Below the pieces are notes generated by a model, which had not been told where the DNA came from, made no database searches, and saw nothing but the letters and a program-made list of their open reading frames with translations. DNA of 36,620 bases from a virus, in IMG/VR virus record IMGVR_UViG_3300045988_182864, one strand, 5' to 3'. Both the position numbers and the translations under genes were made by a program. Numbering within the stretch: position 1 is the first letter of the stretch; each line of letters starts with the position of its first letter. Below are positions 5,936-35,871 of the stretch, in pieces.

Positions 5936-5971
5936 AATAAAAGTTCCCGCCGACAATAGCTGTTCGGCGGG
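5936..5971 (-). terminator. terminator-like hairpin between 6003..6221 and the lysozyme-like gene
   Basis: Minus strand ccgccga-cagctattg-tcggcgg followed by gaacttttatt (interrupted T-run). Confidence 0.4.
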
Positions 5972-6002
5972 GTGTGATTGATGTTCGGTTGTCGGAAAAA
6001 CT

Positions 6003-7300: not shown

Positions 7301-7329
7301 GGTTTACCTCCTTTTCTGAAAATGGAAAC

Positions 7330-12077: not shown

Positions 12078-12217
12078 TGCAATTGCTTTGTCTGAGTCAG
12101 TTATTGTCGGTTACCTCCGTTCTGTGATTCCACAACCCAATCGCGTCCTGTTCGTTTTTATGAGGGGTATTTATTATTTTTGGTTGGATTTCTTACAAAA
12201 ATTGGCGGTCTACTAAT

Positions 12218-13756
12218 TTATGTAAATACAATCCCTTCGTTTTTGGCAACAAACTTACATTTACCAGATGAATACGAGTTGCCGTTTGTGTCGTAATATC
12301 CATCTGCCTGACCGTTGTGCGAGCTACTGGTTCCTTGCATCACATGAGTATGCTTGCCAACAAGAAACACACAGCCGGGAAAGTTGCGTTTTGGATTTCG
12401 ATATTCCGGATGATGCTCTTTTACCTTGAGTTTGTAAACGTCATCGGGATGGTTTTGACGAAACTCTTCCAAGCTGTCGGTGGTCTGTTTAATGGCTTTA
12501 TGTCGATTTGTAGCAACTGCCTTATCATTAAGCGTATACACACGGCTCATATTTGCTTTATGCAGTGCTCTTCTATCATGACGGCGGAACTGTTTAAGTT
12601 CATACGGCACACGATTGTTGATGCCGCTATCGCAAACATCATTTGGTAAAACAGAACAAGCGATACAATAAGCATCGAGCCAATGGTCTTTGCTTACACC
12701 GTGCGCTGCACGGTAATCGTAGGTGCTCTTTCCCGTTGTTACGAAAAAGTGCTTTGGAAAAAGAGTGTTTAATCTTTCCGTTAACGCGGGAATGATTTGA
12801 TTTAGCACACTTTGCGCACCGTATTTTTTATTGAGTCCGGTTTTCTTTTTGGCAAGCTTCTTTTGCCATGTAGTATCTTTATGCACAAGGTCGTGGTGTT
12901 TTGTGCATAAGCCAACGATGTTATCAATGGTGTTGCTGCCGTTTTCGGATTGCGGTACTACATGATGATAATGGGCGATAGGCTTCTTGCAAAACAAGCA
13001 ATGGCGTTCCTGCATTTCAGAGACAGCTTCTTCAAGGCTTGCTTTTTGATAGAGCGGGCCTTGCTGATATTGCCATTTCTGAACATTGGGATTATCCAGC
13101 CGCATAAACGCAAATTTATTGACTTCCAACACAACATCACTGATAGGAAGAAACTTCCGAATCTTCTTTACCAAGTTAATGTGTGTCTGCAACAACTGAT
13201 TTGCGGTGGGCGTAAGCCAGCCTTCCGGTCTTGTGCGATTGCTAAACTTTGCTTCTTTGTTCTTGATGCCGATACAAAGGACTTCTTTCTCGCAACCCGG
13301 AAGATGGCGCTTGATGACACCAATCTCCTTTGCACGCTTGCTGACGCTGCCATTTTGAGCTGTGGCTTGCTTTACGCATTTCTTGGAAATGGTGTCATTG
13401 GCTTTAGCTCTACGTTGACGGCGGCAGCGTCTGCCGTTGGTGCGTCTTGCGCGGCGAGAGTCTTTGCGCTTTTTCATCAACTTGGGAATTTCCTTATTGC
13501 GAGTTTCCAGATGTGCAGTAAAGACTGCCGTGCCGTCCGTTTTAACAACAGCAACGCCGATATTGGTTCTGCCGGGGTCGATGCCTAAGTAAAGCGGCTG
13601 CACTACATCGTTGGTTTCATACAACAGTTGAATGGTAAATGGTTTTGATGCTACGACTCGCGCTTTCTTCTCTTTCAGAAGGTAGCGGATATGACCACAG
13701 CGAGTCGTAGGCATTAAAGGTTTACCGTTTTTATTAAGCACATACACAGTGGACAT
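12218..13756 (-). CDS. iscB: IscB (OMEGA system RNA-guided nuclease: PLMP, split RuvC, Arg-rich bridge helix and HNH), 512 aa
   Basis: VYVLNKNGKPLMP (PLMP domain). LGIDPGRTNIG (RuvC-I). RRARRTNGRRCRRQRRA (bridge helix). VVLEVNKF (RuvC-II). CLFCKKPIAHYHHVVPQSENGSNTIDNIVGLCTKHHDLVH (HNH). KDHWLDAYC (RuvC-III). True start MSTVYV with RBS aaaggaggtggcgtat-ATG. Confidence 0.85.
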   Translation of the reverse strand: MSTVYVLNKNGKPLMPTTRCGHIRYLLKEKKARVVASKPFTIQLLYETNDVVQPLYLGIDPGRTNIGVAVVKTDGTAVFTAHLETRNKEIPKLMKKRKDSRRARRTNGRRCRRQRRAKANDTISKKCVKQATAQNGSVSKRAKEIGVIKRHLPGCEKEVLCIGIKNKEAKFSNRTRPEGWLTPTANQLLQTHINLVKKIRKFLPISDVVLEVNKFAFMRLDNPNVQKWQYQQGPLYQKASLEEAVSEMQERHCLFCKKPIAHYHHVVPQSENGSNTIDNIVGLCTKHHDLVHKDTTWQKKLAKKKTGLNKKYGAQSVLNQIIPALTERLNTLFPKHFFVTTGKSTYDYRAAHGVSKDHWLDAYCIACSVLPNDVCDSGINNRVPYELKQFRRHDRRALHKANMSRVYTLNDKAVATNRHKAIKQTTDSLEEFRQNHPDDVYKLKVKEHHPEYRNPKRNFPGCVFLVGKHTHVMQGTSSSHNGQADGYYDTNGNSYSSGKCKFVAKNEGIVFT

Positions 13757-13977
13757 ATACGCCACCTCCTTTATGATAAGTCTCCCCTGCCGAAGCAGGA
13801 GGTTGTGTTTCCCTTGGCTGGGTGTTTGCTGCAAGTGACATTACACGAGGCAATACCACTCTTGCGGAGCTATCAACTGGGAAAATCGATAGGCGCAACA
13901 AACATCCATGTGCCTGTGATACTTATGAAATTAAGTGATTTTATTCAAACCACCAAATTTCGTAAATACCCATTTTC
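13757..13977 (-). ncRNA. candidate omegaRNA (HEARO-type) of IscB; 5' boundary and guide not resolved
   Basis: A 221-nt non-coding gap sits directly 5' of iscB on the same strand. Stems include CCUCCUGC-UUCG-GCAGGGG (7 bp with a UUCG tetraloop, 13780-13801) and CUAUCGA...UUGAUAG (7 bp). The position matches the known omegaRNA location. Confidence 0.55.
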
Positions 13978-14445
13978 TTAGATGTGTGGGAACACCTCAT
14001 ACACACTCACATACAGCATTCCCGGCTTGTAGTCAGCATACTCTACCGAACGCTTCTGGTCGTATACCTTCACATCCGAACCATCATCTGCCGTAAGCCA
14101 GAGATATTTGACATGCTCAGCATAGCGAGGGTCTTTTGCGCGATACATTTGCCCTTCTTTGATTTTGAGGCGGCGCATACAGGCTTGGACGCGGGAAAAC
14201 TCAACAAATGCACCATAGTCACCAATCACGATACGGTTGTACCCGTTGGTAATGACTGTGCCATTAGCGGTTTCGAGCGAAATCGTATCGCCGGAAACAT
14301 TGCACCATTCCGGCAATGCTTTCTGAAACTCGGCTCGCACATCGCAGAAAAAGGTGCGCTGGATAGGCTTGTATCCATAATCTCGGGCAAGTTGCTCTTG
14401 ATATTTGAGCATCTGAGCGCCGACTTCTGAAATTCTATGCTTCAT
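13978..14445 (-). CDS. hypothetical protein, 155 aa
   Basis: RBS gtcaggagtaatcg-ATG. Confidence 0.65.
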   Translation of the reverse strand: MKHRISEVGAQMLKYQEQLARDYGYKPIQRTFFCDVRAEFQKALPEWCNVSGDTISLETANGTVITNGYNRIVIGDYGAFVEFSRVQACMRRLKIKEGQMYRAKDPRYAEHVKYLWLTADDGSDVKVYDQKRSVEYADYKPGMLYVSVYEVFPHI

Positions 14446-14448
14446 CGA

Positions 14449-15129
14449 TTACTCCTGACTCAGCATCTGCGCAGAAGCAACTTCCCGAATATTGCGATTC
14501 TCTTTTTCGGGAGCCGACACAATGCGGCGATGAGAGCGCATCAGCGTCAATACGCGGTTACGGAGCTTTTCGTCCTTGATAAGCCGAGCAACCTGTTTGA
14601 TTTCCGATTCACGCAGATACATTGTACTGTTGATGAGAACGCCATGTACTTCGCCGTCTTCGGAACTTTTCTCAACCTTATCGACATTGTTATAGGCATA
14701 GATGACATCTACGTCGATGGTGATGGACGCTCTCTCAAGAAGTTCAATTCCTCCTTGGGCTACCAGCCACTTGTGTGTGTAGCTTTCGTCAGAAATGTAT
14801 GTTTCGCCAATGAGTTCCAGCGGCGGCGACACAAGGCTGTTCGTGGAATAACGGATATGGTCTTCGCTTTCGTTGAGATTATCCTGCCAAAGGCGCATCG
14901 GCTTGAGGCTCTTGTCCTTGAAGTGAATGTAGGTGTCCTGAATGAATGTGCAGATGGTCCGCTTAATATAGTCGATTTCCGGCATCTCTTCTACATTGCG
15001 GAAAACAAAGCGCGTAGACTCGCCCTCGCCGTACTCTTCGTCGTCCGTCACATAGCGGACTTTCTCCAACACAAACTTGGGTTTTAATGCCTCTTTAACG
15101 GCTTCGAGAGAAAACACATTCCACTTCAT
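14449..15129 (-). CDS. hypothetical protein, 226 aa (start MKWNVF)
   Basis: TGATG stop/start overlap with the upstream gene, with ggagag upstream. Confidence 0.65.
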   Translation of the reverse strand: MKWNVFSLEAVKEALKPKFVLEKVRYVTDDEEYGEGESTRFVFRNVEEMPEIDYIKRTICTFIQDTYIHFKDKSLKPMRLWQDNLNESEDHIRYSTNSLVSPPLELIGETYISDESYTHKWLVAQGGIELLERASITIDVDVIYAYNNVDKVEKSSEDGEVHGVLINSTMYLRESEIKQVARLIKDEKLRNRVLTLMRSHRRIVSAPEKENRNIREVASAQMLSQE

Positions 15130-20050: not shown

Positions 20051-20138
20051 TGGCGGATAGGGTAGGATTCGAACCCACGGACGCGGATGCATCTCTGGTT
20101 TTCAAGACCAGTTTCATAAACCACTCGGACACCTATCC
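20051..20138 (-). tRNA. tRNA-Ser: tRNA-Ser(TGA), type II
   Basis: Acceptor GGATAGG/CCTATCC, G73, CCA, anticodon arm CTGGT-CTTGAAA-ACCAG, T-arm GTGGG-TTCGAAT-CCTAC. Confidence 0.9.
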
Positions 20139-20179
20139 AAGAATCAGAGAGTGTTAGCCGCAGAAATCTGCGTTGCCCG

Positions 20180-20214
20180 CCATCTACCGCGTGGAGGTCG
20201 CTCTCAAAAGATGG
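20180..20214 (-). repeat. Conserved hairpin motif, copy 1 (plus-strand loop ACCGCGTGGAGG; minus-strand CCUCCACGCGG)
   Basis: Stem ccatct/agatgg, preceded by gttgccc. Confidence 0.6.
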
Positions 20215-20446
20215 CTGACGAGACGAATTTGTCTCGCCCATGCCGCAGCCGTTTTCGCCACTCGGCATGGTGTTTTCGGCTTGACGTAACCCTGTGTAAA
20301 TGACCCTCAGGTGGGGGCGGTGCGGGCAGGATTATCGTCTTCGTGGTGTAGTTAAGGAGTACCGCACCAAATAAATGACCGTACTGCGCTTGTGTAACAG
20401 TACAATGCACGCCCAGAGACGATTTCCAAGATGGAGATGTGTCTGG

Positions 20447-22505: not shown

Positions 22506-22581
22506 TGGCGGGTCGTACTGGGTTCGAACCAGCGACGCTCGGATTAACAGTCCGATGCTCTACCGACTGAGCTAACGACCC
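22506..22581 (-). tRNA. tRNA-Asn: tRNA-Asn(GTT)
   Basis: GGGTCGTTAGCTCAGTCGGTAGAGC..., anticodon loop CTGTTAA, T-arm GCTGG-TTCGAAC-CCAGT, GCCA end. It abuts the previous tRNA with no spacer. Confidence 0.9.
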
Positions 22582-22628
22582 AAGAAAAAAGACATTCGCC
22601 ACGGGGAGCTCAATACCCGTGTTACCGC

Positions 22629-22660
22629 CGCTCGCCGCGAGGAGGCTGTCTTTATGAGCG
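22629..22660 (-). repeat. Conserved hairpin motif, copy 3 (loop GCCGCGAGGAGG)
   Basis: Stem cgctc/gagcg, preceded by gttaccg. Confidence 0.55.
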
Positions 22661-22842
22661 ACAACTCTTATGGGATACCAGATACGATGCTTGCCGCTGC
22701 TCTACAACCAGCCGCAAGCGGATGTGTATGTAAGTGTGTGTAAAACTATGATGTTGTTTCGGAGCGTATCTGGTATCTTTTAAGAGTTTTATGTTATCTG
22801 CGAAGATGTTCGCCAAGCTAAGGGAGGTTAAGCTTGTTGCCC

Positions 22843-23002: not shown

Positions 23003-23030
23003 ATTATCTGCAATTCGCATATTTTGTCAA
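23003..23030 (-). promoter_or_regulatory. Family 1 promoter TTGACA-16-GATAAT with TGCGAA spacer element, upstream of the RNA island
   Basis: -35 at 23025-23030, TGCGAA at 23014-23019 (plus strand ttcgca), -10 at 23003-23008. Confidence 0.65.
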
Positions 23031-23898: not shown

Positions 23899-24587
23899 AT
23901 GTCAGCAATCGAAGGCGTCCAGTCTTTGTCTTTGCCGTACCCGCATACGGGGCATACGAGCGGGATATTTTTGCAGCTGCCGGTCGTATACATGTCGGGG
24001 CCGAATTCATTGTCAGGGTGCCACAAAGCGGCGATTTGAGGGCATGCAACTGATACTACAGGTTTCCTTGCTGTTTTGGCGTAGTGGGCTCTCATGACCT
24101 TTCTCAGTGAGTTTCTGGCGCATTCTGGACATCCGGTATGTACTTCCCCGGACCCGCAGGCAAAAGCAATCATCGGATGCCATTCCCCGCTTGCGCCGTA
24201 CCCGCAATCCTTGCAGACAAGGTATACATGCTTTGCGCTTCCGGAAGTCACTCGCGTGGGCGGGAACTCATTAAGTGTCGGATGCCACTGTGCAGCGATT
24301 TCGGGATGTACGGTAGCTACATCATTGACGCCTTCGACAAGGACTTTTCCGGAACACGCCGGGCATCCGCCGCCTGTTCGACAGGCACCGGCGATAGAGG
24401 GACGCCATTCGCCGTTCTTTCCGTATCCGCATTTCTGGCAGATAATAGCGATTCTGCGATTGCTGCCGCAGGTGACTTCCTCCGGTGATACAGAATTGGC
24501 TGTCGGATGCCACATAGTAGCAACGCAGGGACATTCCTGTGCTACCGTTCCACGATGCCTGCGATACCGCCACTCGAAATCTTTCAC
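23850..24587 (-). CDS. zinc-ribbon repeat protein (four DUF4379-like W-H-P...C-x2-C...GEW...C-P-x-C modules), 245 aa
   Basis: Four repeats such as WHPTLNEFPPTRVTSGSAKHVYLVCKDCGYGASGEWHPMIAFACGSGEVHTGCPEC. The GTG start overlaps the upstream TGA (GTGA). Confidence 0.6.
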   Translation of the reverse strand: MKDFEWRYRRHRGTVAQECPCVATMWHPTANSVSPEEVTCGSNRRIAIICQKCGYGKNGEWRPSIAGACRTGGGCPACSGKVLVEGVNDVATVHPEIAAQWHPTLNEFPPTRVTSGSAKHVYLVCKDCGYGASGEWHPMIAFACGSGEVHTGCPECARNSLRKVMRAHYAKTARKPVVSVACPQIAALWHPDNEFGPDMYTTGSCKNIPLVCPVCGYGKDKDWTPSIADICRKGAKCPFCGNIVR

Positions 24588-25768
24588 GGTACAACCACCC
24601 CCGCCCGTTTATGGATGTTTTCGGACTTTGCGATATTTACAGCTGTGCTGTAGGAGATACCATATATATCCGCAAGGTCACGAAGATTTTTGCCGGTATT
24701 CATCCGTGCAAATTCCGCAAATTCCCGGTTTCGGGCTTTTACATTATCCGTGATAGGAGAACGGCTTTGCGTGGCTTTACGGGTTTCGGCTTCTGTCAGC
24801 GATTCAGAAAGCTTTCCGTAGTCGTGCAGAATCTTATAGGTCTGACCCACGGCAATCTTATGGTCTTTAGCAATGTCGGAGACGCTTTTCCCGTTCTGGT
24901 ATTCTCCCGCAATCCCCTCGCAGACTTCTTCCGGCAGCGTCTTCTTCATTTTTGCGTTGCCGCGCAGGTTCTTGCGGTAGAGGGGATGATGTGTCCGGTA
25001 TTTCTGTATAAGCCCCGCAATGAATCGCGGCGTGACATTGTACCGTACTGCGATATTCTCTACCTTGACACCCGCTTTGTAGTCTTTCAGGATATCGTTG
25101 TTCCGCGCTTCGACTTCCTCCTGGGTCTTGGTGTCTTCCAAGGCTTCACGCTGTAGCCCCAATACTTTCGGGCTGTGCTTGAATTCCGGGATGTTCATGG
25201 GTGGTTCAGGACCGAAACGGACAAGACCACCAGAAATCGGATGCCCTGCTTCTCGAAATACCTGATAGGTGGTGGATTCCGATAACCCATACTTGTCCAT
25301 GATTTCTCCGACAGTCATGTACGGATTTGCCCTGACATCCGCAACGATTTCAGCATTGCGCTGGCGTTTCTTGAACTGTACAGCTGACCCGATATTCTCT
25401 TTGTGCGGGGTATAATCAGGGCTTCTGCGCAGGATATGATAGACCTGTTGTCCAGAGAGATTGTATTTCTCAGCGATTTCAAAGGTCCAGGCCCCGTTTT
25501 TGTAGTCTTGCGCAATCTCAATATTCCGCTGCTCCATGTCGGCTTTCGACAATCGTTTCTGATTGTTGGGTTTCCGATTCGGGCTTTTGCGGTCATTGCG
25601 GCGCACAGCATCAAAACCCTCTAACACTTCAAGGGATTTCTTAACATTCGTGCAGCTGATACCGTATTTCTCAGCCAATTCCGCGATGTGCATACCGGCG
25701 ACATAATCGTTCAGCATTGCCTTATCGCGGTTCAGCTTTGCTTCTCCGGTCAAACTTTTCCGATGCAT
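24584..25768 (-). CDS. protein built from about six tandem helix-turn-helix modules, 394 aa
   Basis: Repeats of the form RNxEIxxDYxxGxxxxEIAEKYxxSxxxVYxIL. Start MHRKSL with RBS aatcaggaggatacacc. Confidence 0.7.
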   Translation of the reverse strand: MHRKSLTGEAKLNRDKAMLNDYVAGMHIAELAEKYGISCTNVKKSLEVLEGFDAVRRNDRKSPNRKPNNQKRLSKADMEQRNIEIAQDYKNGAWTFEIAEKYNLSGQQVYHILRRSPDYTPHKENIGSAVQFKKRQRNAEIVADVRANPYMTVGEIMDKYGLSESTTYQVFREAGHPISGGLVRFGPEPPMNIPEFKHSPKVLGLQREALEDTKTQEEVEARNNDILKDYKAGVKVENIAVRYNVTPRFIAGLIQKYRTHHPLYRKNLRGNAKMKKTLPEEVCEGIAGEYQNGKSVSDIAKDHKIAVGQTYKILHDYGKLSESLTEAETRKATQSRSPITDNVKARNREFAEFARMNTGKNLRDLADIYGISYSTAVNIAKSENIHKRAGVVVP

Positions 25769-26664
25769 GGTGTATCCTCCTGATTTGCTACCCAGTCGAT
25801 GATATGGTCGATGCAAAGATTCGTGATTTTGCTTGCGGTATAATACTGTGAAGTGTCATTGAGCAGCGATTCAATTTCCGTTTCGGATGCCGAATACCCT
25901 ACTGATGCAAAGAACAGCCTTGTGAGGGTACGCGCATCGTCCCGGCACAGAGGTCTTACCGTATGCCCAAAGGTGAAACGCCGGAACAGAGCATCGTCCA
26001 GAGTATCGGGACGGTTCGTGGTCCCGATAAGGATGATTTCGTTGCCGAGTCTGTCAAGTTCCTGCATCAGGGCAATCGTCACACGGTTCATCTCCGCAAC
26101 ATCGTCCTTGCCGCCGCGCCGTGTCCCGATAGCGTCAATCTCATCGAGGCAGAGCACGCACGGACTTTTCCTTGCATAGTCGAATACCATACCGATATTC
26201 TTCTGTGTTTTGCCCAGAGCGGAATTCACCATACCGGAGAAATTTGTGTACACGAAAGGAAGGTTCGTCGTATAAGCTATATACCGCGCCAACTCAGTCT
26301 TTCCGGTTCCCGGCTCGCCCATGAGTAAAAGAGAACTCGTATAGTGAATCCCCATCTCCTGTAACCGCAGCGCAGCACGGCGCGTCTTGCACATTTTATC
26401 AATGACCGCCTTCTCGCTGTCTCGGATGAGGAACCGGTCTTCTCGGAAAGCGCTCGAATCCTCCGCGACCAAAAGCCCCTGCAGGTTATACGGCAGTTCG
26501 ATGAGTGTAGGACTTTTACTTGCAAGTGTTCGCAGACAGGTTTCCTTGAACGCTTTGTCCTTGACAGTAGTAAGCCCCTCCAACACGATTTTCGCCTGTT
26601 GCTGAGATTTCCGAATATCCCCTTCCACTACATACCGAAGCAATGCCCGTTCATTCTCGTTCAC
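25750..26664 (-). CDS. AAA+ ATPase (classic clade), 304 aa (GTG start)
   Basis: Walker A GEPGTGKTELA. Walker B VLCLDEIDA. Second region of homology GTTNRPDTLDDALFRRF. RBS gagggagggaaattaa. Confidence 0.85.
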   Translation of the reverse strand: MNENERALLRYVVEGDIRKSQQQAKIVLEGLTTVKDKAFKETCLRTLASKSPTLIELPYNLQGLLVAEDSSAFREDRFLIRDSEKAVIDKMCKTRRAALRLQEMGIHYTSSLLLMGEPGTGKTELARYIAYTTNLPFVYTNFSGMVNSALGKTQKNIGMVFDYARKSPCVLCLDEIDAIGTRRGGKDDVAEMNRVTIALMQELDRLGNEIILIGTTNRPDTLDDALFRRFTFGHTVRPLCRDDARTLTRLFFASVGYSASETEIESLLNDTSQYYTASKITNLCIDHIIDWVANQEDTPCIGKV

Positions 26665-26718: not shown

Positions 26719-27204
26719 TCAATCTCTTTTACATTTCTGCTTACGGACGCGCCGAATAATACTGTAAATACCCGGCAAGGAATAATGGTATGCCTTAGCG
26801 AGGTCTTTGGCCTCGATGCCGTTTTGGTATTTCTCGAAGATTTCATCGTTGCGTTTTTGCTGACGGCGGGTGATGCGACGATGACTGAGTTCTTTGTTGC
26901 TGATTCCGGCCTGAACCGCGATGGCACTGCAATACCCTACGGAAACGCCGTACTTTTCGGCAATGTCGCGGACACGCGTATTTTTCTGATACTCCGCCAC
27001 GATTTTATCGACCAGATTGGTATGGTCCTGTTCTTCCGCAATGCGCTGCGCCTGCCGCTCCTCATCGAGAGCGCGGTAGCAAGTCCTGATGCAAAGCCCG
27101 TATTTCTCGGACAGTTCCTCGAACGATAGACCGTTCTCGTAGTCCTTTACAATCTTCTCGTTTCGTTCGATGATTTCGCTGCGGGTTGCTTTCCTTTTCC
27201 TCAT
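26719..27204 (-). CDS. protein with three tandem HTH modules, 161 aa
   Basis: NEKIVKDYENGLSFEELSEKYGLCIRTCYRAL, KIVAEYQKNTRVRDIAEKYGVSVGYC and NDEIFEKYQNGIEAKDLAKAYHYSLPGIYSII. Confidence 0.7.
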   Translation of the reverse strand: MRKRKATRSEIIERNEKIVKDYENGLSFEELSEKYGLCIRTCYRALDEERQAQRIAEEQDHTNLVDKIVAEYQKNTRVRDIAEKYGVSVGYCSAIAVQAGISNKELSHRRITRRQQKRNDEIFEKYQNGIEAKDLAKAYHYSLPGIYSIIRRVRKQKCKRD

Positions 27205-27210
27205 ACTGGT

Positions 27211-27729
27211 TCACCCCTTAGGCTTTGCTGCCTTCTTTTTGCGTCCCTTGCCGCGATAGATACCGGCCTCATGAAGATACTTGAATCCGGAAGAGGGACT
27301 GATACCGTATTCCCGAGCAAGGTTCTCGACCGGCGTGTTGGGGTTCTTCTTCGCGTAGTCCACAAACCCCTGCTTGAAATCTTTAATGCGGCGCAAAGTA
27401 GAGGTCTCGATTTTCGTGTCGAGGTGCCGGTGGTAGGAGTCCCCGCCTTCTTTCAGAATACGAAAAATCGTGGCGCGGTTAAGGTTAAAAGTTTTTGCCA
27501 GTTCTTCGGCTGAAATGCCTTCCTGATACTGGTTGCGAATCTCGTCGTTGCGGTTGTCCTTCCACTCCGTAAAAGTCACTTTCCGCCGCTTCTCCATCTC
27601 AGCCTGTGCGATATGGTAGACGGTTTGTGGGCTGAGTCCGTGCTCCTGCGCGAGGTCCGTGACCTTTGCGCCATTTTGCAGTGCATCGGTAATTTTTCGA
27701 TTGCGTTCCAGCAACTTTTTATGCGTCAT
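27211..27729 (-). CDS. protein with three tandem HTH modules, 172 aa
   Basis: Start MTHKKLL with RBS tgggaggttttt. Modules KITDALQNGAKVTDLAQEHGLSPQTVYHIA, NDEIRNQYQEGISAEELAKTFNLNRATIFRIL and NPNTPVENLAREYGISPSSGFKYL. Confidence 0.7.
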   Translation of the reverse strand: MTHKKLLERNRKITDALQNGAKVTDLAQEHGLSPQTVYHIAQAEMEKRRKVTFTEWKDNRNDEIRNQYQEGISAEELAKTFNLNRATIFRILKEGGDSYHRHLDTKIETSTLRRIKDFKQGFVDYAKKNPNTPVENLAREYGISPSSGFKYLHEAGIYRGKGRKKKAAKPKG

Positions 27730-27740
27730 AAAAACCTCCC

Positions 27741-27877
27741 AAAATAAAAGAAGCAAGCTCCCGAAAGAACTTGCTTCTTATAATCTGTGTTCACTTTTTT
27801 CGCGTGATGCGGGCAAAAAACTCACCCACTGATTCACTTTACAGTTTTCATTTTACCCAATTCGCACGAATGTGCAA
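27741..27877 (-). promoter_or_regulatory. Cassette D: family 1 promoter TTGCAC-16-TAAAAT, non-homologous leader and terminator directly before the RBS of the HTH operon
   Basis: -35 at 27872-27877, -10 at 27850-27855, TGCGAA in the spacer. Hairpin aagaagcaag...cttgcttctt followed by ttatttt at 27741-27779. Confidence 0.6.
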
Positions 27878-27892: not shown

Positions 27893-28360
27893 TCAGGTCC
27901 ACTGTATGTACGGGATATCGGAAAGCATCATAAGGCAGGTCTCAAACTCGTCTTCGATGTATCGGGTGATGGCATCGAATCTCTGCATCAGTGGCAGTTC
28001 CGCGAAAGATGTGCCGGTTTCCTTGCGGCATTTCCCCTCTGCGCTCGTATATATCACATTCAGCATGACATTCAAGGCGAGAAGAATATCTTCATCCTTG
28101 CCCTGAACCGTGAAGTAGAAGTAGTGCTCCGACTCACCGTCTGTAACGCCGATTCGGTTGTCGTATTTTCCGTAACTCGCCAAATCACCAAACACACTGA
28201 TTGCAATATATCGCAACTTATCCTCAATAGGAACAGTCCCCCATAAAGGATAATGTTCATCCGGCTGAAAATCTGCCTTACCGCCGTTATACTCCCATTC
28301 AACAAAATCACGGACGGAGAGTTTCTGACCGCCCGGAATGATTATTTCTAGCTGTTCCAA
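27893..28360 (-). CDS. hypothetical protein, 155 aa (TTG start)
   Basis: RBS aagaggtgagaacact-TTG, downstream of the promoter at 28398-28425. Confidence 0.6.
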   Translation of the reverse strand: MEQLEIIIPGGQKLSVRDFVEWEYNGGKADFQPDEHYPLWGTVPIEDKLRYIAISVFGDLASYGKYDNRIGVTDGESEHYFYFTVQGKDEDILLALNVMLNVIYTSAEGKCRKETGTSFAELPLMQRFDAITRYIEDEFETCLMMLSDIPYIQWT

Positions 28361-28397: not shown

Positions 28398-28425
28398 ATT
28401 GTATCCGGTTCGCACGATTATGCAA
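28398..28425 (-). promoter_or_regulatory. Family 1 promoter TTGCAT-16-TACAAT with TGCGAA spacer element (no leader terminator)
   Basis: -35 at 28420-28425, -10 at 28398-28403, spacer aatcgTGCGAAccgga. Confidence 0.65.
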
Positions 28426-29522: not shown

Positions 29523-30269
29523 TCAGATGTACTTTTCCCAGAATTTCTCGAAGGTTTCGTCCGGCATCACCATTTCCGTCTCATCGAGGACACGGCTGAA
29601 CTCGCTGCTGCTGATGTCGGTGCCGATGAAATCCGTGACGGCATCGCGGCCACGCTGCATCAGGGCATCTTTCAGGATATACCAGCGGTATTTGTGGATG
29701 AGGTCCGTCAGAGATTCGCCGTCGTTCTCCCAGTAATCGTTCTTTGCCTGAACATGATACAGAGCATCGAGAACGCCGTCGTAGTCATCGCTGTCATACT
29801 CGCTCACGATGTCGGTGAGATTGAGCAGACTGCGGTCAACGCCATCGACATTCACGGTTGCGTTTCTGAACGAGTCATCGTAGCAGGGCTGTGCAGGAAC
29901 TTCCACAGCAAACACCTCGCGGGTTTTCTTGTTCACCTTGCACGGCAGATGGAACGATGCACCAGAATCGAAGTTCGAGGTGATGACGCCGGATACAATA
30001 TCGGGCATCGGGTTTTCGCGAGCCTCCTCAAACTCCGGCAGATGGAACACATCCACGACATTCTCGATGTCGTAGTCAAGGGCACGGACCTTCGTGACGA
30101 TGTAGCCACCACGCTGCAATTCGAGAACTGCACGGCAGAGGTCAAGCTTAATCTCGTGCTCATTCAGAAGACCACCGTGACTGTCTTTCACGAGGGTGAT
30201 TTCGATTGTTTTGTTCTTGGCAGTCGTTTCGGCCAGAAAATAGGTCTTGTCATTGCAAATTTCAAACAT
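29523..30269 (-). CDS. hypothetical protein, 248 aa
   Basis: RBS aaaaaggagcgtaatgac-ATG. The first 24 codons are duplicated at 31900. Confidence 0.65.
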   Translation of the reverse strand: MFEICNDKTYFLAETTAKNKTIEITLVKDSHGGLLNEHEIKLDLCRAVLELQRGGYIVTKVRALDYDIENVVDVFHLPEFEEARENPMPDIVSGVITSNFDSGASFHLPCKVNKKTREVFAVEVPAQPCYDDSFRNATVNVDGVDRSLLNLTDIVSEYDSDDYDGVLDALYHVQAKNDYWENDGESLTDLIHKYRWYILKDALMQRGRDAVTDFIGTDISSSEFSRVLDETEMVMPDETFEKFWEKYI

Positions 30270-30298
30270 GTCATTACGCTCCTTTTTGTGTTGGACGC

Positions 30299-30436
30299 AA
30301 AAAGAGCGGGCCTCTCAGAATCGAGAAGTCCGCCCTTCAAGCGAAATTGTGAATGTACGAAAGGCATAAACCCTTTCGATATGGAATGTTATCTATCGTA
30401 CAATACCTATTCTATGCCATTCGCACGTTTTGGCAA
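30299..30436 (-). promoter_or_regulatory. Cassette F: promoter TTGCCA-16-TAGAAT, conserved leader and terminator
   Basis: -35 at 30431-30436, -10 at 30409-30414. Box1 30382-30402, box2 30346-30358. Internal hairpin cgaaagg/cctttcg. Terminator region 30299-30336. Confidence 0.7.
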
Positions 30437-30437
30437 G

Positions 30438-30469
30438 AAAAAAGTCGCTGCCCCAGCATAGGCAGCGAC
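30438..30469 (-). terminator. Rho-independent terminator after gene 30485..31558
   Basis: gtcgctgcc-tatgctgg-ggcagcgac followed by tttttt. Confidence 0.8.
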
Positions 30470-30484
30470 CAGATTATAATGCCG

Positions 30485-31558
30485 TTAGATATAATTGGGA
30501 TTCCATTTTTCGCAGCCATAGGAAATAATGGATTGCAAAAATTTTAGCGGAACAAGATTCTCGCTGACCGAGGCACTGTTTTCTTTTACATATTGATTGA
30601 TTTTTTTACGCTCCTCATCGTTTGCGGATTCAACATTGATGAAAACCTCTTTTGTGGTCGGCTCATAGAAGAAAAAGCTGCTGCAAGAAATCTTGACAGA
30701 GATACCCTCACCGTTGCCGTTTCCGATTACGATAGTTATATTTTTTCTTGCGTCAAGCGTCCGTGCGCAGTATACAGACACGCTTTTTGCAATGCGTTGT
30801 GATTCATTATCATCGAAAACAAATGCAGGGCTCATTTTATCAGCCATTCTTGCTGCTGCAACTCTTTTGGGAAACTCATTTGCTCGTCTGCTATACCAGG
30901 CTCCCTGAAGCGACAAACTTCTTAGCACATAATCCTTGAGCGTTTCCATCGCAGCTTCAAGATAACCATCCTCGTCAATGATGTAATTCACAATGCTCTT
31001 ATAATTGATATTACGCACAATACTTTTCGCGTTTAGAAGAAGAAAGTTATAGTGAACCGGTCTGCCTTCGAGCATGGTATAAATAGCATATTGTTCCGCC
31101 CGCTCATTCGTTTCCTTGCCATCGCTTAAGGCATGACAGAAGCTTAATTCTTCAATGATTTTCTTGCAGTATGCCTGCTCGAATTGCTGATGATAATCTA
31201 TCAGCTCTTCTTTAAGCTTTGGACACACGCTGATGAGATAGCTGGGTAAACTCCAAAATCGAGTAGAGTCAATGCTGTAACCGGCTTTTTTGAAACTGTT
31301 CGAGTAATCACTGGGAAGCGGTGTGTTGTAACCGTTTTTCCACGCTTCCCACCGAAATTCCTGCATATATATCTCGTCAACTCTACTGTTGACCGGCACC
31401 TTAAAAATCTTGATATATACCCCACTTTCGCAATTTCGATGGCAGAAAATGTGGTTTTCATCTACAATAAAGCCTTCGAGAAAGGCTTCGTTTGGATTGT
31501 GGAAATATTGATAAACACATTCTTTGTTCAAGTATTTCACGTTTTTTATTGCTGCCAT
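30485..31558 (-). CDS. hypothetical protein, 357 aa (paralog of 33408..34442)
   Basis: RBS aacggaggatgaatt-ATG. Shared blocks YLEG, KVPV, EVYMQ and FFYEPTTKEVFINV.../...ERKKINQYVKE...ENLVP. Confidence 0.7.
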   Translation of the reverse strand: MAAIKNVKYLNKECVYQYFHNPNEAFLEGFIVDENHIFCHRNCESGVYIKIFKVPVNSRVDEIYMQEFRWEAWKNGYNTPLPSDYSNSFKKAGYSIDSTRFWSLPSYLISVCPKLKEELIDYHQQFEQAYCKKIIEELSFCHALSDGKETNERAEQYAIYTMLEGRPVHYNFLLLNAKSIVRNINYKSIVNYIIDEDGYLEAAMETLKDYVLRSLSLQGAWYSRRANEFPKRVAAARMADKMSPAFVFDDNESQRIAKSVSVYCARTLDARKNITIVIGNGNGEGISVKISCSSFFFYEPTTKEVFINVESANDEERKKINQYVKENSASVSENLVPLKFLQSIISYGCEKWNPNYI

Positions 31559-31714: not shown

Positions 31715-31900
31715 CTAGCTAAAACCCTTGTCGCGGATTTGCATTTCGTCGTACATAGCACGGACAAACGCAGTGGCATCTACCTCCCGGTGCTGCGTGT
31801 AAGCACGAAGCCTATCCCTTGCAAGGGTGATTTCGATTGTTTTGTTCTTGGTGGTCGTTTCGGCCAGAAAATAGGTCTTGTCATTGCAAATTTCAAACAT
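31715..31900 (-). CDS. short ORF of 61 aa sharing its first 24 codons with 29523..30269. It ends at a TAG that is followed in frame by 50 more sense codons (to 31562)
   Basis: Start MFEICNDKTYF with RBS aaaaaggagcgtaatgac. The in-frame continuation FHQCGSSQEEDRNYYGNQFFEVWSVTDENNAKRMAEIIAKKIGTNIENGG ends 3 nt before the next ATG. Confidence 0.5.
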   Translation of the reverse strand: MFEICNDKTYFLAETTTKNKTIEITLARDRLRAYTQHREVDATAFVRAMYDEMQIRDKGFS

Positions 31901-31930: not shown

Positions 31931-32069
31931 AAAAAGAGCGGGCTTCTCAGAATTGAGAAGTCCGCTCTTCAAGCGAAATTGTGAATGTACGAAAGGCACA
32001 AAACCCTTTCGATATGGAATGTTATCTATCGTACAATACCTATTCTATGCCGTTCGCATTTTTTGGCAA
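31931..32069 (-). promoter_or_regulatory. Cassette G: promoter TTGCCA-16-TAGAAT, conserved leader and terminator
   Basis: -35 at 32064-32069, -10 at 32042-32047. Box1 32015-32035, box2 31978-31990. Terminator gagcggacttctca-attc-tgagaagcccgctc followed by ttttt. Confidence 0.7.
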
Positions 32070-32114: not shown

Positions 32115-33131
32115 TTATTGATTGAGAGCCTTTTCGGCGTTTTCTTTGACGGTAGCACGGATATCGTCAGATACCTGCAGCACATCCAATGCTGCATCAA
32201 GCGTCAGAGTGCCGGAGCGAACAAGGTTTGCAACGCTCGCGGAAAGAGATTCAACATACCCTTCCGCACGACCTTTTACAATTCCCTGTTGTTCCACAAA
32301 GTCACTGTAATTACACATTTGATTGAGTCCCTCCCTAACGTCGGTTGTAACCTGCAAACCACATTCAGTGGCGAGTTGCAGCTTTTTCTCTACCGGCATA
32401 TTGTTATCGAATACCGAAGAAAAGAAACGTACCATGTTATTCGCGGATTGTTTGTCCTGCAAACACGCGATGATGATGCAGAAGTTGTCATATTGCTTTT
32501 TGGGGAAGTGACATTCTTTGGCTAAGCAGGTTTCGCTCATGGAATATGTATTACATACTCCGCGAACTTTTTCATCTGGCGCAATGCACAACCAAATACT
32601 GTATACTTTTTGTAGTTTATTGTAGTCCGAATTACGAAAGACAGTTTCTTTTTGTGCAGAAATCATTCTGCCGCAATAAAAGCTACCGCGCTTCAGCATT
32701 GAGTATCCGGGATTGAAGTGATTCTGAGCTTCAATATCTACAATGACACGGCTTGGAGGTGATTTACCACCCGGCATACCGATGTCGAACAGAACATCAT
32801 AGTATATTGTTCCCTCGTTTGTGCTTTTTGACTCGACATTCTTTTCGTTCAGTTTATCCGGCAAGTCATCAACAATGTGACATCCAATTTCAACCGGCGA
32901 AGTATTGTTTGCTTGAATTTCAGCCAATTCCTCCGGCGTCATTTGGCTTTTTGCTTTCTTGTAAATGATATATTCCTGAATTTCTTCAAGGGACATATCG
33001 CGGAATTCAGGGATGCAGTTCTTTACGATAAAAGCTGCAACAGCAGTACAACCAAGCAAAGCCTTGCATCCGGCATCCAAATAAGATTTTTCGTTGTTGA
33101 TGGCATGTCCGACGGTATTAAGACCTTCCAA
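32115..33131 (-). CDS. Rpn-family / PDDEXK_2-type recombination-promoting nuclease-like protein, 338 aa (TTG start)
   Basis: YYDVLFDIG...RVIVDIEAQNHFNPGYSMLKRGSFYCGRMIS resembles the D...ExQ core of this family. The C-terminal EQQGIVKGRAEGYVES motif is typical of Rpn-like proteins. RBS aaaggaggtaagagaca. Confidence 0.55.
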   Translation of the reverse strand: MEGLNTVGHAINNEKSYLDAGCKALLGCTAVAAFIVKNCIPEFRDMSLEEIQEYIIYKKAKSQMTPEELAEIQANNTSPVEIGCHIVDDLPDKLNEKNVESKSTNEGTIYYDVLFDIGMPGGKSPPSRVIVDIEAQNHFNPGYSMLKRGSFYCGRMISAQKETVFRNSDYNKLQKVYSIWLCIAPDEKVRGVCNTYSMSETCLAKECHFPKKQYDNFCIIIACLQDKQSANNMVRFFSSVFDNNMPVEKKLQLATECGLQVTTDVREGLNQMCNYSDFVEQQGIVKGRAEGYVESLSASVANLVRSGTLTLDAALDVLQVSDDIRATVKENAEKALNQ

Positions 33132-33209
33132 TGTCTCTTACCTCCTTTATTATACCATGTTCGCAAGAAAAATGCACTACTATGTTGGATAGAAAGTGCT
33201 TTTGTACGC

Positions 33210-33349
33210 AAAAAAAGAGTGGGCCTTCCCTTTTTGGGAAAGTCCACTCTGATTGCGGATTGTAAATGATACGAAAGGCGGAATGCCTTTGTCGATTGCT
33301 GGTATCTATCGTACAATATCAATTCTATGCTGTTCGCACATTTTGGCAA
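33210..33349 (-). promoter_or_regulatory. Cassette H: promoter TTGCCA-16-TAGAAT, conserved leader (variant boxes) and strong terminator
   Basis: -35 at 33344-33349, -10 at 33322-33327. Box1 TGTACGATAGATACCAGCA at 33299-33320, box2 GTATCATTTACAAT at 33259-33272. Terminator agagtggactttccc-aaaaa-gggaaggcccactct followed by T7. Confidence 0.7.
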
Positions 33350-33407: not shown

Positions 33408-34442
33408 TTATGCTTCAAACCTTTGTACAAGCATCATAGGGACGAGGTTTTCGCGCACAAGGAAACCGCAATCTTTGACATAGCGGTTTACTTTTTTACG
33501 TTCACCCTCGCAAATATCGCAGATGTTTACGAAGATTTCTTTTGTTTTCGGCTCATAGTAGAGAAAGTTGTCAATGGGAATCTTAATCTGCATATTTCCG
33601 GCGCTTTTGTTGCACAGCGTTACATCGACAATGTTCTTTTTGCAAATAGTTCCCTTATGGGAATTCAGAAGATGTCTCGCTGCTTTCTGGGATTCGTTTT
33701 TGGTCGGAACGAACATGTTGGTCATCTTACTTGCAAGCCTCGCTGCCGCAACCTTTTTGGGAATATATGCACCGGTTGGCGTTTCCTTTGATGTCGTTTT
33801 AAAGTTCCTTCTGCTGAGACTTGTCAACAAAGAAGTTGTGAATCCTTCAGGGTCACAAGCATAGTTGAGACCCAACTCGTAGCAGCCAAGTACACTGACT
33901 GGATATAAAGTTTGCAAGGCGTTCTCGATACAGCCGAAATACACCGGCTTCTCACGCTTAGAGAGCATATCCAAAATCGCGTACTGTTTTGCCAGATTCT
34001 TAACGGCCTCGCTCTTTTCTACGCCAGCGTCAACTGCGTATTCCTTCAAAACCTTTCTGGTAAACGCATCCCAAAATTCAGACACAAAATCAGCATCATC
34101 GAACTTCTGCCGACTTTGAGTGCAAATTCTCCAAAGCGGCTCCATAAGCCAAAGACGAGACGAATCAATGACAACCCCGACCTTTTCAAATTTGGTATCT
34201 TTCCCAAACTCCTCTATCGGACGGTTGCTGTCACCTTCAAACGTTTTGTATGGGATAGCTTGCATGTATACTTCGGACGCTTTATCTCTAACGGGAACCT
34301 TCAGCAATCGGACATATACACTCCTATCCGTTTCTGTTGGAAAACCGTAGCTTTGAGGGATAAGTCCCTCGAGATAGGTCTCACTTGAATTGTGCATATA
34401 GTCAAGAATCGTATCAGCATCCAAATATCTTATAGCATCCAT
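33408..34442 (-). CDS. hypothetical protein, 344 aa (paralog of 30485..31558; start MDAIRYL)
   Basis: RBS gaaaaaggagtctgtcct-ATG after the stop of the upstream gene at 34459. Confidence 0.7.
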   Translation of the reverse strand: MDAIRYLDADTILDYMHNSSETYLEGLIPQSYGFPTETDRSVYVRLLKVPVRDKASEVYMQAIPYKTFEGDSNRPIEEFGKDTKFEKVGVVIDSSRLWLMEPLWRICTQSRQKFDDADFVSEFWDAFTRKVLKEYAVDAGVEKSEAVKNLAKQYAILDMLSKREKPVYFGCIENALQTLYPVSVLGCYELGLNYACDPEGFTTSLLTSLSRRNFKTTSKETPTGAYIPKKVAAARLASKMTNMFVPTKNESQKAARHLLNSHKGTICKKNIVDVTLCNKSAGNMQIKIPIDNFLYYEPKTKEIFVNICDICEGERKKVNRYVKDCGFLVRENLVPMMLVQRFEA

Positions 34443-34458
34443 AGGACAGACTCCTTTT

Positions 34459-35871
34459 TCAGCTGTTCGTAGCCATAGGCAACCACTGCTGCGGGTAGGC
34501 ACGAAGTTTCTCCCTAGGCACGCAATCGTTCAGAGCGGAGTTTTCAGCGAGCGCCATGTCGATGATGTAATAATCATCACCATTGCGCATCACATCCACG
34601 CTCCACTGCCCTACCAGTTCGACAGCGGGAAGAATCTTCTTGATTTCCTCCAGAATCATCCGAGCACTGTCATCGTATCGAGACTGCAGGATATCCTCGT
34701 GCATCTGATAGATGACATAGTCGTGGCGTTCCTGCGGAGTGCTTGCGTTCTTGAACTTACCCTTCATTACATCGGCTCGCCAATAAGGGCTGATACCCAG
34801 CACCTCATCAGCGTCAAAATCGACGAATACGCGGTACTCAGTATGCAGCGGCAAACCGTTGTAGATGGTCGGGTTGTGTTCCTTGTCCTTGATATATTTC
34901 CTGAGCACCCACTCGTTCGTTGTATTAGCACCATAGAAGCAGGTATTGTTCAACGGCGAAGCCATAGAACATGTCAGATGATTCAGGAACAGGAAATACT
35001 CGCCCATCTCATTGATTTCCTTCGGGTCATGGATATGAGCGTTACGAAACTCATACTTGGAAGAATAAGTTCCGGTCTTGATGAAGTAATCCTCGTGCTC
35101 ATCCAGCTTGAATATCCGCTTGCAATAACGGTTCACGATTTCCTTGGTCACAGGATTCAGGGTTTCAAAGCCAAGGCGAGTGAGCTGCAGCATCGGCAGC
35201 GGAACACGCAAAATCTTGGTATCAGGAATCCTGAAGAATTTGTTCCCGTACAACGCTTTTGCCAGCGGCGGAAGCCAGAATCCCATCGTGTTGGGATTCA
35301 TTTCGAGCATCTGGTAGGTAAAGTCGTCGAGGTCAAGAATATCAAGACCCTGACGGAACTGGTTGTAGTAGAACTTCTTCATGCGGTCATCGCGTGCATC
35401 CTTGTACTCGGCGTAATTCTGAAGCAGAATCTTATACGATGGCTCCGAGATATCGACCTTCGCAAGATTTCCTGTCAGCTGAGGTCTGAGTTCTTCCGGG
35501 TATTTTTTCAGGTCATCGTTCGTTACCGTCACAGTGTATCGAGATGCCGCATAGTTCACATAGTATCCGCCGCGTTTTTCATTGTAGATGTACAGGCGAG
35601 TACCATCTGTTAACTCACCTACGATACGGTCAATGAGCGCTTCGAGGTCCCGCGTAAACGGCACCCTCTTGTCGAGCATAGCCTTGACAGTAGCGGTATC
35701 CCACTGTAAGAGGTTCTCGGATAATGCCCCGCTGTCCAGCACCTGTTTCTTATAGGCGTCCTCGAATGTTTTGAGGGCATCAGGGCTGGTTTTCAGCATT
35801 GCAGCAAGTTCTTCGTAGGAAAACGATTTATCTTCCCTTTTGGTCATCATTTTACCGATTTTGGCAATCAT
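34459..35871 (-). CDS. hypothetical protein, about 470 aa; weak ATP-grasp-like C-terminal features (start uncertain: 35871 or 35928)
   Basis: Long ORF. The stretch WSVDVMRNGDDYYIIDMALAENSA resembles the Mg-binding end of ATP-grasp folds, but I cannot verify this by eye. Confidence 0.6.
   Translation of the reverse strand: MIAKIGKMMTKREDKSFSYEELAAMLKTSPDALKTFEDAYKKQVLDSGALSENLLQWDTATVKAMLDKRVPFTRDLEALIDRIVGELTDGTRLYIYNEKRGGYYVNYAASRYTVTVTNDDLKKYPEELRPQLTGNLAKVDISEPSYKILLQNYAEYKDARDDRMKKFYYNQFRQGLDILDLDDFTYQMLEMNPNTMGFWLPPLAKALYGNKFFRIPDTKILRVPLPMLQLTRLGFETLNPVTKEIVNRYCKRIFKLDEHEDYFIKTGTYSSKYEFRNAHIHDPKEINEMGEYFLFLNHLTCSMASPLNNTCFYGANTTNEWVLRKYIKDKEHNPTIYNGLPLHTEYRVFVDFDADEVLGISPYWRADVMKGKFKNASTPQERHDYVIYQMHEDILQSRYDDSARMILEEIKKILPAVELVGQWSVDVMRNGDDYYIIDMALAENSALNDCVPREKLRAYPQQWLPMATNS

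Follow-up and report, generated by a model that had tools for sequence, protein, structure and literature searches.

An uncatalogued, highly repeated leader family of probable attenuator type in a gut jumbo phage

Results

The viral DNA analysed here, hereafter the window, is a stretch of 36,620 nucleotides (nt) from IMG/VR virus record IMGVR_UViG_3300045988_182864, in which a cassette consisting of a promoter, a 5′ leader of about 100 nt and an intrinsic terminator recurs in front of separate gene blocks. The copy under study, cassette D, lies on the minus strand at 30299–30436, has a leader of 104 nt and precedes an open reading frame (ORF) of 248 amino acids (aa) at 29523–30269, with the ribosome-binding site (RBS) GGAG about 17 nt past the T-run of the terminator. 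Followed in the direction of transcription, the −35 hexamer TTGCCA (30431–30436), a TGCGAA spacer motif (30420–30425) situated 5 nt upstream of the −10, and the −10 hexamer TAGAAT (30409–30414) are succeeded by a conserved element, box1 (TGTACGATAGATAACA, 30387–30402), at the predicted 5′ end of the transcript. Next are a hairpin of free sequence, P2 (30358–30378; CGAAAGG/CCUUUCG in this copy), and a second conserved element, box2 (30346–30359), which consists of CGUACA, the 3′ strand of a helix termed P1, and then the single-stranded UUCACAAU. The adjoining segment X1 (UUUCGCU, 30340–30346) is the 5′ strand of a further hairpin, P3, and pairs with GCGGA at 30329–30333. The cassette is closed by the terminator (30299–30338), a GC-rich hairpin of 16 base pairs (bp) with the conserved base GCRGAC, followed by UCUUUUU. 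On its other side, the −35 of cassette D is abutted by the terminator (30443–30470, minus strand) of the upstream gene (30485–31558).

An earlier note on this DNA had placed six copies, here called A to F, at 2014–2146, 6248–6389, 7330–7459, 30299–30436, 31931–32069 and 33210–33349, respectively, all on the minus strand, and these coordinates proved exact. Cassette A precedes a 35-codon ORF (start at 1997) and the ORF 978–1880, cassette B a block running from 6221 to 2199 that includes a lysozyme-domain protein (5128–6006), and cassette C, the representative of a structural sub-class described below, the ORF 7055–7300. Cassette E is a near-duplicate of D and is followed by a truncated 5′ end of the cassette D gene and then by ORF 30485–31558, whilst cassette F, in which X1 is UCCGC and pairs with GUGGA, precedes ORF 32115–33131.

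In each copy a TTGCnn −35, 16 nt containing the invariant TGCGAA, a TAGAAT −10 and 5–6 variable nt lead to box1, which is followed by a variable segment, box2 (TT(C/T)ACAAT), a GC-rich hairpin and a run of five to eight T residues. The order of promoter, box1, hairpin with box2, and terminator that had been put forward for all six was recovered throughout, except that box2 of copy C is without its CGTACA half. The box1 consensus of the six is TG(T/C)A(C/T)GATAGATA(A/C)CA, also written TGTACGATAGATA[A/C]CA. The pattern TAGAAT-N6-TGNANGATAGATA matched the window five times against 0.07 matches expected (copy A has N5 at this position), and the six copies are therefore not a product of chance. 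A covariance model, R1, built from 35 non-redundant relatives and run on the window with filters off, returned six matches of 58–86 bits (82.4 bits for cassette D), the next best match scoring 25 bits. All six leaders fold much more stably than their shuffled counterparts, with z values of −4.1 to −5.7.

A pattern scan of IMG/VR retrieved at least 120 stretches, and among the matches listed these were mostly phage contigs of 20–390 kb with several copies per contig. When R1 was applied to related IMG/VR phage loci, a covariance-model search of the kind that the earlier note had proposed, 247 copies were identified in 820 kb, and a locus of 12–15 kb may contain as many as eight or nine. Another 13 cassettes were identified in four further 20-kb loci (L479–L482) from ENA contigs of 235–286 kb, and pooling of loci from single contigs gave at least a dozen copies per genome. 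The dCMP deaminase encoded in the window is found, unchanged in sequence, in 2,700 blocks of a public assembly collection, on contigs of 235–286 kb. The phage is a very prevalent, uncultured gut jumbo phage with a genome of ~235–290 kb, of which the window, at ~36 kb, represents about an eighth. Its module of ~190 bp stands ahead of dozens of gene blocks that are probably early.

The earlier note had not known of this motif being described, and the databases bear it out. In searches of Rfam 15 with all cassettes there was no match at the gathering score, and only chance-level matches appeared at E values up to 10; likewise, no cassette match was obtained by megablast or blastn in INPHARED (50,697 deposited phage genomes). 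Against deposited phages, tblastn recovered only remote protein matches, to unannotated faecal phage contigs, an exact-protein look-up of the ORF at the right end of the window gave no match, and no prior description of the cassette was found in text searches of the literature. When a bacterial genome collection was scanned with box1, almost all hits were chance single matches, the sole genuine cassette being located on a contig of 224 kb that was binned with a Clostridiales metagenome-assembled genome; being based on this single true match, the host assignment is weak. An anaerobic Firmicute host is weakly suggested, and would fit the presence of NrdD among the regulated genes as well as the sigma-70/sigma-A-like hexamers of the promoter.

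In ~1 Mb of fetched loci the box1 core occurs 279 times, and all but about six of these occurrences lie 5–6 nt past the −10 of the same promoter type. A total of 219 leader instances were extracted, reducing to 138 unique leaders of 83–110 nt. Within box1, GAUAGAUA.CA is invariant among 101 distinct leaders, and the leader alignment (A5) revealed two other invariant sets of nucleotides, UU.A.AAU and GCRGAC. Such blocks alternate with segments that vary freely and with compensation, indicating selection on specific nucleotides and not mere homogenisation of a repeat. The earlier note had made its proposal hinge on conservation and covariation in related genomes: in the relatives box1 and box2 are conserved, and the helices carry compensatory changes.

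The helix P1 forms between the 5′-terminal UUGUACG and CGUACAA at the 5′ edge of box2. It is almost invariant and 96% paired, and targeted scans of box1 point variants yielded the compensatory variants UGUAUG/CAUACG and UGUACA, the latter with its partner changed from CGUACA to UGUACA(A). In minimal variants the 5′ end of the transcript pairs with box2 itself. In sub-class C, which includes copy C of the window, box1 pairs instead with the 12–13 nt directly after box2; in copy C, GUGCAUGAUAGAU of box1 pairs with AUCUGUUAUGUGC just past box2 over 13 bp, sequestering X1. This helix too has compensatory variants, namely GCAUG/UAUGUGC, GUAUA/UAUAC and GCAUAACAGAU/AUCUGUCAUGC, together with the pair UGUAUAAUAGAU / AUCUGUUAUACA.

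At the position of P2, at least 10 unrelated stem sequences occur, and the hairpin is absent from an 85-nt variant. A shuffle test of P2 was crude (mean z −1.1, with segment boundaries that cut some of the stems), and support for this hairpin comes mainly from the alignment and from individual folds. As hairpins are gained or lost, the spacing of the two boxes changes by ~30 nt among leaders. The nascent RNA of the main class, taken up to the terminator loop, folds into a three-way junction of P1, a small GAUAGAU hairpin and P2, followed by single-stranded box2 and then P3. Judged from the covariation in these alignments, it is the RNA, and not only the DNA, that is under selection. Two further proposals for the boxes were rejected: box2 is not an ordinary second promoter, as a suitably spaced −35 is missing from all copies but F, where it occurs by chance, and a universal pairing of box1 with X1, which holds for CUG-type X1 and for sub-class C, by inspection fails in copies of the UUCGC type.

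In the terminator helix, 7 of 12 pairs were found to be changed on both sides, and 98% of cells are paired, compared with 38–49% in slid controls. One of the pairs is U–G in 77 of the 101 leaders, from which it follows that selection acts on the sense RNA strand. At the terminator base, GCRGAC, an A stands opposite C in many copies. The competing hairpin P3 is weak (5–7 bp), and its 3′ strand is GCRGA, the first nucleotides of the terminator 5′ arm. The X1 pentamer is located 2–3 nt past CACAAU and pairs at five of five positions with the start of this arm in ~115 of 132 unique leaders; the X1 type UUCG(C/U), with ~45 occurrences, is found only with GCGG and never with the incompatible GCAG. 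The central pair of P3 (columns 69–85 of a model-derived alignment) is C–G in 33 rows, U–A in 27 and U–G in 19, with unpaired cells in these columns coming almost entirely from 19 rows shifted by one register. Diverged copies achieve the same overlap with the terminator through other sequences (UCUUUU/AAAAGG in L054, CUUAUGC/GCAUGAG in L091 and AAUCU/AGAUU in L012).

Folding placed P3 in the nascent RNA and the terminator in its stead in the full-length RNA. As far as alignments and folds can tell, a hairpin whose 3′ strand is shared with the 5′ arm of the terminator is an antiterminator arrangement, and the whole has the anatomy of single-terminator attenuation. Roughly estimated, the terminator contributes about −17 to −22 kcal/mol and P3 only a few kcal/mol (the fold computations gave whole-RNA energies); the terminator is thus favoured thermodynamically, and the default product would be an RNA of ~100 nt. 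Past the T-run, the first ~15 nt of many cassettes (e.g. 30290–30298 and 7315–7329) tend to echo the class of the terminator 5′ arm, with GCG following copies of the GCGG type and GUUUGCAGA those of the GCAG type. Eight exact 5-mers were counted against 3.8 expected, a number reached in 9 of 1000 permutations; in transcripts that read through, X1 could accordingly pair there and build a long helix that encloses the terminator. The possibility that X1 and its loop constitute a boxA was rejected, the resemblance being confined to one sub-class.

The RBS of the downstream gene begins 0–30 nt past the T-run in ~80% of the 138 unique leaders, and is absent within 90 nt in 10 of them. This spacing supports the view of the earlier note that downstream genes depend on terminator read-through, and its treatment of promoter, 5′ leader and intrinsic terminator as a single unit is likewise supported. 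The same note had the RBS closely following the terminator in copies B and C, which is correct for C, with its RBS ~18 nt past the T-run; the ORF behind B starts 27 nt past the T-run and is without a clear Shine–Dalgarno sequence. Alone among the six, copy F carries a further promoter past its terminator and ahead of the gene, a leaderless core of the form TGCGAA-N5-TATAAT (33149–33165, minus strand).

A terminator abuts the −35 in at least 54% of 198 distinct contexts, and in simple scans no strong internal terminators were seen in the operons of the window, so that the units appear to be insulated on both sides. Directly downstream of the cassettes 47 protein families were encountered, those with names including NrdD, SSB, an N6-methylase, YopX, a deoxynucleotidase and GmrSD_N, with most of the others being of no known function. 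An MBL enzyme with a faint Pfam match to Anti-Pycsar_Apyc1 lies directly behind a short, 85-nt cassette variant in the L479–L482 set. Judged by their sequence assignments, these families have the character of early genes, with roles in DNA metabolism and counter-defence. One gene carries the full cassette in L040 and L037, and in L006 and L027 the cassette is deleted down to the T-run, demonstrating that the leader is a removable regulatory add-on.

The cassette promoter belongs to a class with the consensus TTG(A/C)C, ~8 nt, (G/T)TGCGA(A/G), 5 nt and TAnAAT, whose −35 and −10 hexamers are close to the sigma-70/sigma-A consensus, and it is predicted to be of this host type. TGCGAA was also found in promoters without a cassette, including those of tRNA genes, of leaderless genes and of one unrelated leader with a terminator, and is a general promoter feature of the phage with no specificity for the cassette. 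It was therefore rejected as a Q-binding element, for which it had been the most obvious candidate. In the window, all on the minus strand, this promoter type occurs at 28398–28414 (TGCGAA-N5-TACAAT), leading straight into ORF 27893–28360 with neither leader nor terminator, a candidate immediate-early unit, and at 23003–23030 (TTGACA..TGCGAA..GATAAT), where it drives tRNA genes with no cassette leader. Homology searches with the 155-aa product of a leaderless promoter, and with a protein of ~105–111 aa behind another, gave no useful lead. In L039 and L051, an ORF starting MRMVVKTYKYKLYNS... lies behind a leaderless TGCGAA promoter, and its start has, in our impression, a TnpB-like look.

The same promoter type is also present at 27745–27866 (minus strand), where an unrelated leader of ~100 nt with a strong terminator of its own just before the RBS precedes an operon of HTH regulators. 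This leader contains two direct repeats, AAGUGAAU / AAGUGAAC, flanking a hairpin, and the operon encodes a triple-HTH protein (27211–27756), a Mor-like protein (26719–27204), an AAA ATPase (25750–26664) and a 410-aa multi-HTH protein (24584–25816). The leader is kept in several related phages, and the promoter–leader–terminator layout is, on this example, a theme in the phage.

Searches of Pfam, PHROGs and PDB with the window ORFs returned only HTH/Mor-like, AAA, deaminase, IscB-like and lysozyme matches. None of the 46 ORFs matched an antiterminator family, whether CAT_RBD/PRD, ANTAR, KOW/NusG, HutP, TRAP, PyrR, Q or N. The best match to Phage_antitermQ was sub-threshold (19.2 bits, cutoff 26), in the HTH region of the 410-aa multi-HTH protein.

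There were several instances of recombination between cassettes. Cassettes D and E result from a recent segmental duplication, which took in the terminator on the upstream side and ~27 codons from the start of the ORF behind the cassette. In L034 (IMGVR_UViG_3300045988_182149), the promoter of window cassette F is joined to the leader of window cassette E by a crossover inside box1, and the block of the 338-aa gene (window 32115–33131) is missing; this chimera directly attests to recombination at cassettes. The otherwise collinear contigs L479–L482 differ by whole blocks between cassettes, such as sortase, radical-SAM and UvrD-like helicase genes. The repeated cassettes also function as recombination sites through which gene blocks are shuffled, in our favoured reading as a side effect. 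At 31715–31890 (minus strand), the truncated 5′ copy of the 248-aa ORF (MFEICNDKTYFLAETT...) runs into unrelated sequence behind cassette E. Two ORFs of neighbouring cassette-bounded blocks, 30485–31558 (357 aa) and 33408–34502 (364 aa), both on the minus strand and without known domains, appear by eye to be paralogous.

Other elements of the window include two ribozymes resembling that of hepatitis delta virus (HDV), at 20145–20215 and 22588–22662 on the minus strand (Rfam RF02682, 45.6 and 44.3 bits, gathering score 44). They lie directly 5′ of tRNA-Ser(tga) (20051–20138) and tRNA-Asn (22506–22581), and look like ribozyme–tRNA processing units within the 14-tRNA set of the phage. A 538-aa protein (12218–13834, minus strand) has an RRXRR domain (E 3e-49) followed by HNH, a combination that we read as that of IscB-like RNA-guided nucleases; a search of 11900–14600, around this gene, gave no Rfam RNA.

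Discussion

The reading that we favour, and which in our estimation stands about an even chance of being correct, is that the cassette is a self-contained attenuator module serving at least 47 early gene families, each copy gating one early block and all being switched by a factor that recognises box1 and box2. Under such a scheme the sigma-70/sigma-A-like promoter TTG(A/C)C-N8-TGCGAA-N5-TAnAAT would fire and transcription would begin at box1. The first ~65 nt would close into a domain in which UUGUACG and CGUACAA form P1, enclosing the GAUAGAU hairpin and P2, to be followed by the single-stranded box2 UUCACAAU and by the weak P3, sharing GCRGA with the terminator 5′ arm; this 5′ domain would leave X1 free in the main class and sequester it in sub-class C. 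We infer a default in which the terminator, of 12–16 bp, displaces P3, the polymerase stops ~100 nt from the start, 0–30 nt ahead of the RBS of the gene, and a short leader RNA is released. A trans-acting factor recognising the invariant nucleotides of box1 and box2, most likely a phage immediate-early or host RNA-binding protein and less likely a metabolite or an RNA, would then tip the competition between P3 and the terminator, by keeping P3 in place or, where sub-class C is concerned, by releasing X1 from the 13-bp helix with box1. Termination would thereby be prevented, allowing expression of the block and giving a regulon of many identical attenuators gating delayed-early genes. If switching depends on a factor, the blocks behind cassettes would be delayed-early, and the leaderless units with the same promoter type would be immediate-early and the natural place for the factor.

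In its anatomy the cassette resembles the attenuation leaders of Firmicutes (the ribonucleic antiterminator (RAT) leaders of BglG-SacY-LicT, and those of ANTAR, PyrR, HutP and TRAP) and the terminator riboswitches of the ON type. Common to all are a strong terminator before the RBS, one per leader, a weak alternative hairpin sharing nucleotides of the terminator 5′ arm, and conserved recognition nucleotides beside a hairpin. The cassette differs in that it matches no Rfam family, has no cognate protein family that could be found in the window, begins exactly at the transcript 5′ end and is present in a dozen or more near-identical copies per phage genome, whereas the known leaders number one to a few per regulon. 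The consensus features of RAT, ANTAR and HutP/TRAP targets served for comparison: neither the length nor the sequence of the P2 and P3 loops is constant, box1 has a single UAG, and inspection of the leader alignment revealed no RAT 29-mer, no pair of hexaloop hairpins and no UAG/GAG-repeat consensus. T-box leaders share with the cassette the many copies per genome, a conserved core with a variable stem, and a choice between antiterminator and terminator. They are, in contrast, longer than 200 nt as against ~100 nt, and the cassette has no T-box sequence, no specifier-loop features and no match to the Rfam T-box.

Several points weigh against a factor-dependent attenuator. Both the transcription start and termination are predictions made from sequence, and a leaky terminator could be enough for expression without a factor. 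No candidate factor was found among the 46 window ORFs, though they represent only ~36 kb of a genome of ~235–290 kb. P3 is short, with one clearly covarying pair plus the alternative sequences in diverged copies, and the kinship of the copies inflates the counts; no clear P3 is present in L066 or in the minimal variants, which measure 85 nt and have no P2. The main class and sub-class C do not obviously have a common switching geometry. Box1 (TACGAT) and box2 (YAYAAT) moreover resemble −10 elements, which leaves room for a role at the DNA level.

The strongest rival, owing to the demonstrable recombination of cassettes, is a constitutive module, which we consider possible but unlikely. According to this explanation the cassette pairs a strong early promoter with a leaky terminator, which simply scales expression down and blocks incoming transcription, with neither switch nor factor, whilst the 5′-terminal helix stabilises the mRNA and the repeats serve recombination. 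A 5′-terminal helix is a known mRNA stabiliser in Firmicutes, and the L034 chimera, the D/E duplication and the differing gene content between cassettes among contigs are all as this explanation would have it. Its model is the promoter-early stem-loop (PeSL) cassette of T4-type phages (Arbiol et al. 2010, PMC2839356; Comeau et al. 2014, PMC4122927), of which there are ~50 promoter and stem-loop cassettes per genome, upstream of ORFans and nrdD, with a stem-loop upstream of, within or at the promoter that stops incoming transcription (PMC2839356). The likeness extends to the tens of sigma-70-type early promoter and terminator cassettes in a large phage genome, to their position upstream of ORFans and genes such as nrdD, and to recombination that yields indels and block shuffling. 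PeSLs, however, are without a conserved transcribed leader of ~100 nt, without box1 and box2 and without a terminator between start and gene, and they belong to another phage lineage and another host phylum. A constitutive module would also leave unexplained the invariant single-stranded box2, the invariant GAUAGAUA.CA and the GCRGAC terminator base, as well as the tracking of the terminator arm by X1, and if recombination homogenised the copies, P2 and the upper part of the terminator stem would not be expected to vary freely and with compensation.

In another, improbable reading, the leader would be a sensor that needs no factor, either a riboswitch-like aptamer or an element acting directly on RNA polymerase. 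Through its dozen or more copies, the phage would make all of its early and anti-defence genes respond to the state of the host or to a small molecule, a nucleotide second messenger being one example. If true, this would amount to a phage-wide riboswitch regulon, for which we know of no precedent.

Similarly improbable, in our judgement, is processive antitermination of the nut/put type, in which the leader RNA, alone or with a phage protein, would ride the polymerase past this and later terminators. The systems of lambda (PR′-qut-tR′ with its 6S RNA and Q, and N/nut) and HK022 put have in common with the cassette a terminator ~100–200 nt past a phage promoter that has to be overcome; nut and put offer conserved RNA elements with a hairpin near the 5′ end, and qut a −10-like hexamer right after the start. 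The location of the element at the 5′ end of every unit would agree with processive action, the need for a cis-acting RNA in each unit would explain the many copies, and two hairpins in a closed domain are followed by a terminator. HK022 put is reported to work processively with no protein at all (PMC9378689). The known systems are nonetheless processive from one or two sites per genome, unlike the many insulated cassettes, each with an antiterminator hairpin of its own, and this dedicated hairpin overlapping the terminator would be unnecessary to a processive polymerase. Such a polymerase would also ignore the strong terminators located right before the next promoters, and would find no strong internal terminators to bypass in the window operons. 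Box1 and box2 do not resemble the boxA consensus of lambda, no boxA/boxB-like consensus is present in the cassette, P2 varies freely, and neither an N-like nor a NusG-like gene was detected among the 46 window ORFs. The earlier note had been reminded of nut/put/qut sites; since P3 shares and covaries with the terminator arm, the units are insulated, TGCGAA is a general feature and no Q, N, NusG-like or RAT-binding family was found among the 46 ORFs, an attenuator is the better fit, both to these observations and by comparison with a free-standing small RNA (sRNA).

Slightly less probable still is a mechanism of the Q/qut type or a roadblock at the DNA level, with the box1 TACGAT as a pause element, box2 YAYAAT as a second pause site before the terminator, and a DNA-binding phage protein, such as one of the tandem-HTH, Mor-like proteins, that loads onto or blocks the polymerase. 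The first hexamer of box1, TACGAT, is −10-like and invariant in the main class, its variants CATGAT, TATAAT, TATGAT, AACGAT and TACAAT retain A and T at positions 2 and 6, respectively, and lambda PR′ uses AACGAT. In keeping with such a mechanism, box2 varies mainly where −10 hexamers tolerate change, the distance of box1 from the −10 is fixed, a short terminated RNA like lambda 6S RNA would be expected, and the window encodes several multi-HTH proteins (24584–25816, 27211–27756 and 26719–27204). Other box1 variants (CATAAC, TACCAA, TACTAA and CACAAC), however, lose the T at position 6, the distance between the boxes is not fixed, TGCGAA, the only conserved element of the spacer, is limited neither to cassettes nor to regulated promoters, and the match to Phage_antitermQ is below threshold, no Q or N gene being detected in the window. 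That RNA pairing is under selection is shown by G–U pairs and by compensation within P1 and within the helix of sub-class C. A pause function could coexist with an RNA switch.

That the ~100-nt terminated RNAs are themselves the product, a multi-copy sRNA or decoy family acting in trans on targets of host or phage, with downstream expression being incidental read-through, is very improbable: each copy is a full promoter-to-terminator unit predicted to give an abundant, stable, structured RNA with conserved single-stranded motifs, and a few copies (the 10 of 138 without an RBS within 90 nt, and tandem copies in L015) have no gene directly downstream, but the usual proximity of the RBS to the T-run leaves no room for another promoter, the essential early functions NrdD and SSB lie directly behind cassettes, and no site complementary to the box1 core was found outside cassettes in the ~1 Mb of loci. 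The six-member sRNA family that the earlier note had offered as an alternative is thus unlikely as the main role, given how tightly the terminator is coupled to the next RBS, although the ~100-nt RNA would still be expected as the default product of an attenuator.

Conclusions

The cassette is an uncatalogued, highly repeated leader family, probably of the attenuator type, and a candidate new family for Rfam. As a compact candidate conditional terminator, it would lend itself to in vitro tests using RNA polymerase from any Firmicute, and would provide a handle for fishing out its regulator. For the biology of these phages, a single recognisable RNA element would mark the early units and offer a map of the early regulon, covering nucleotide metabolism, replication and likely anti-defence. 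The idea developed for PeSLs, that repeated regulatory cassettes are engines of gene shuffling, would be extended to another phage lineage and may gain a layer of RNA switching.

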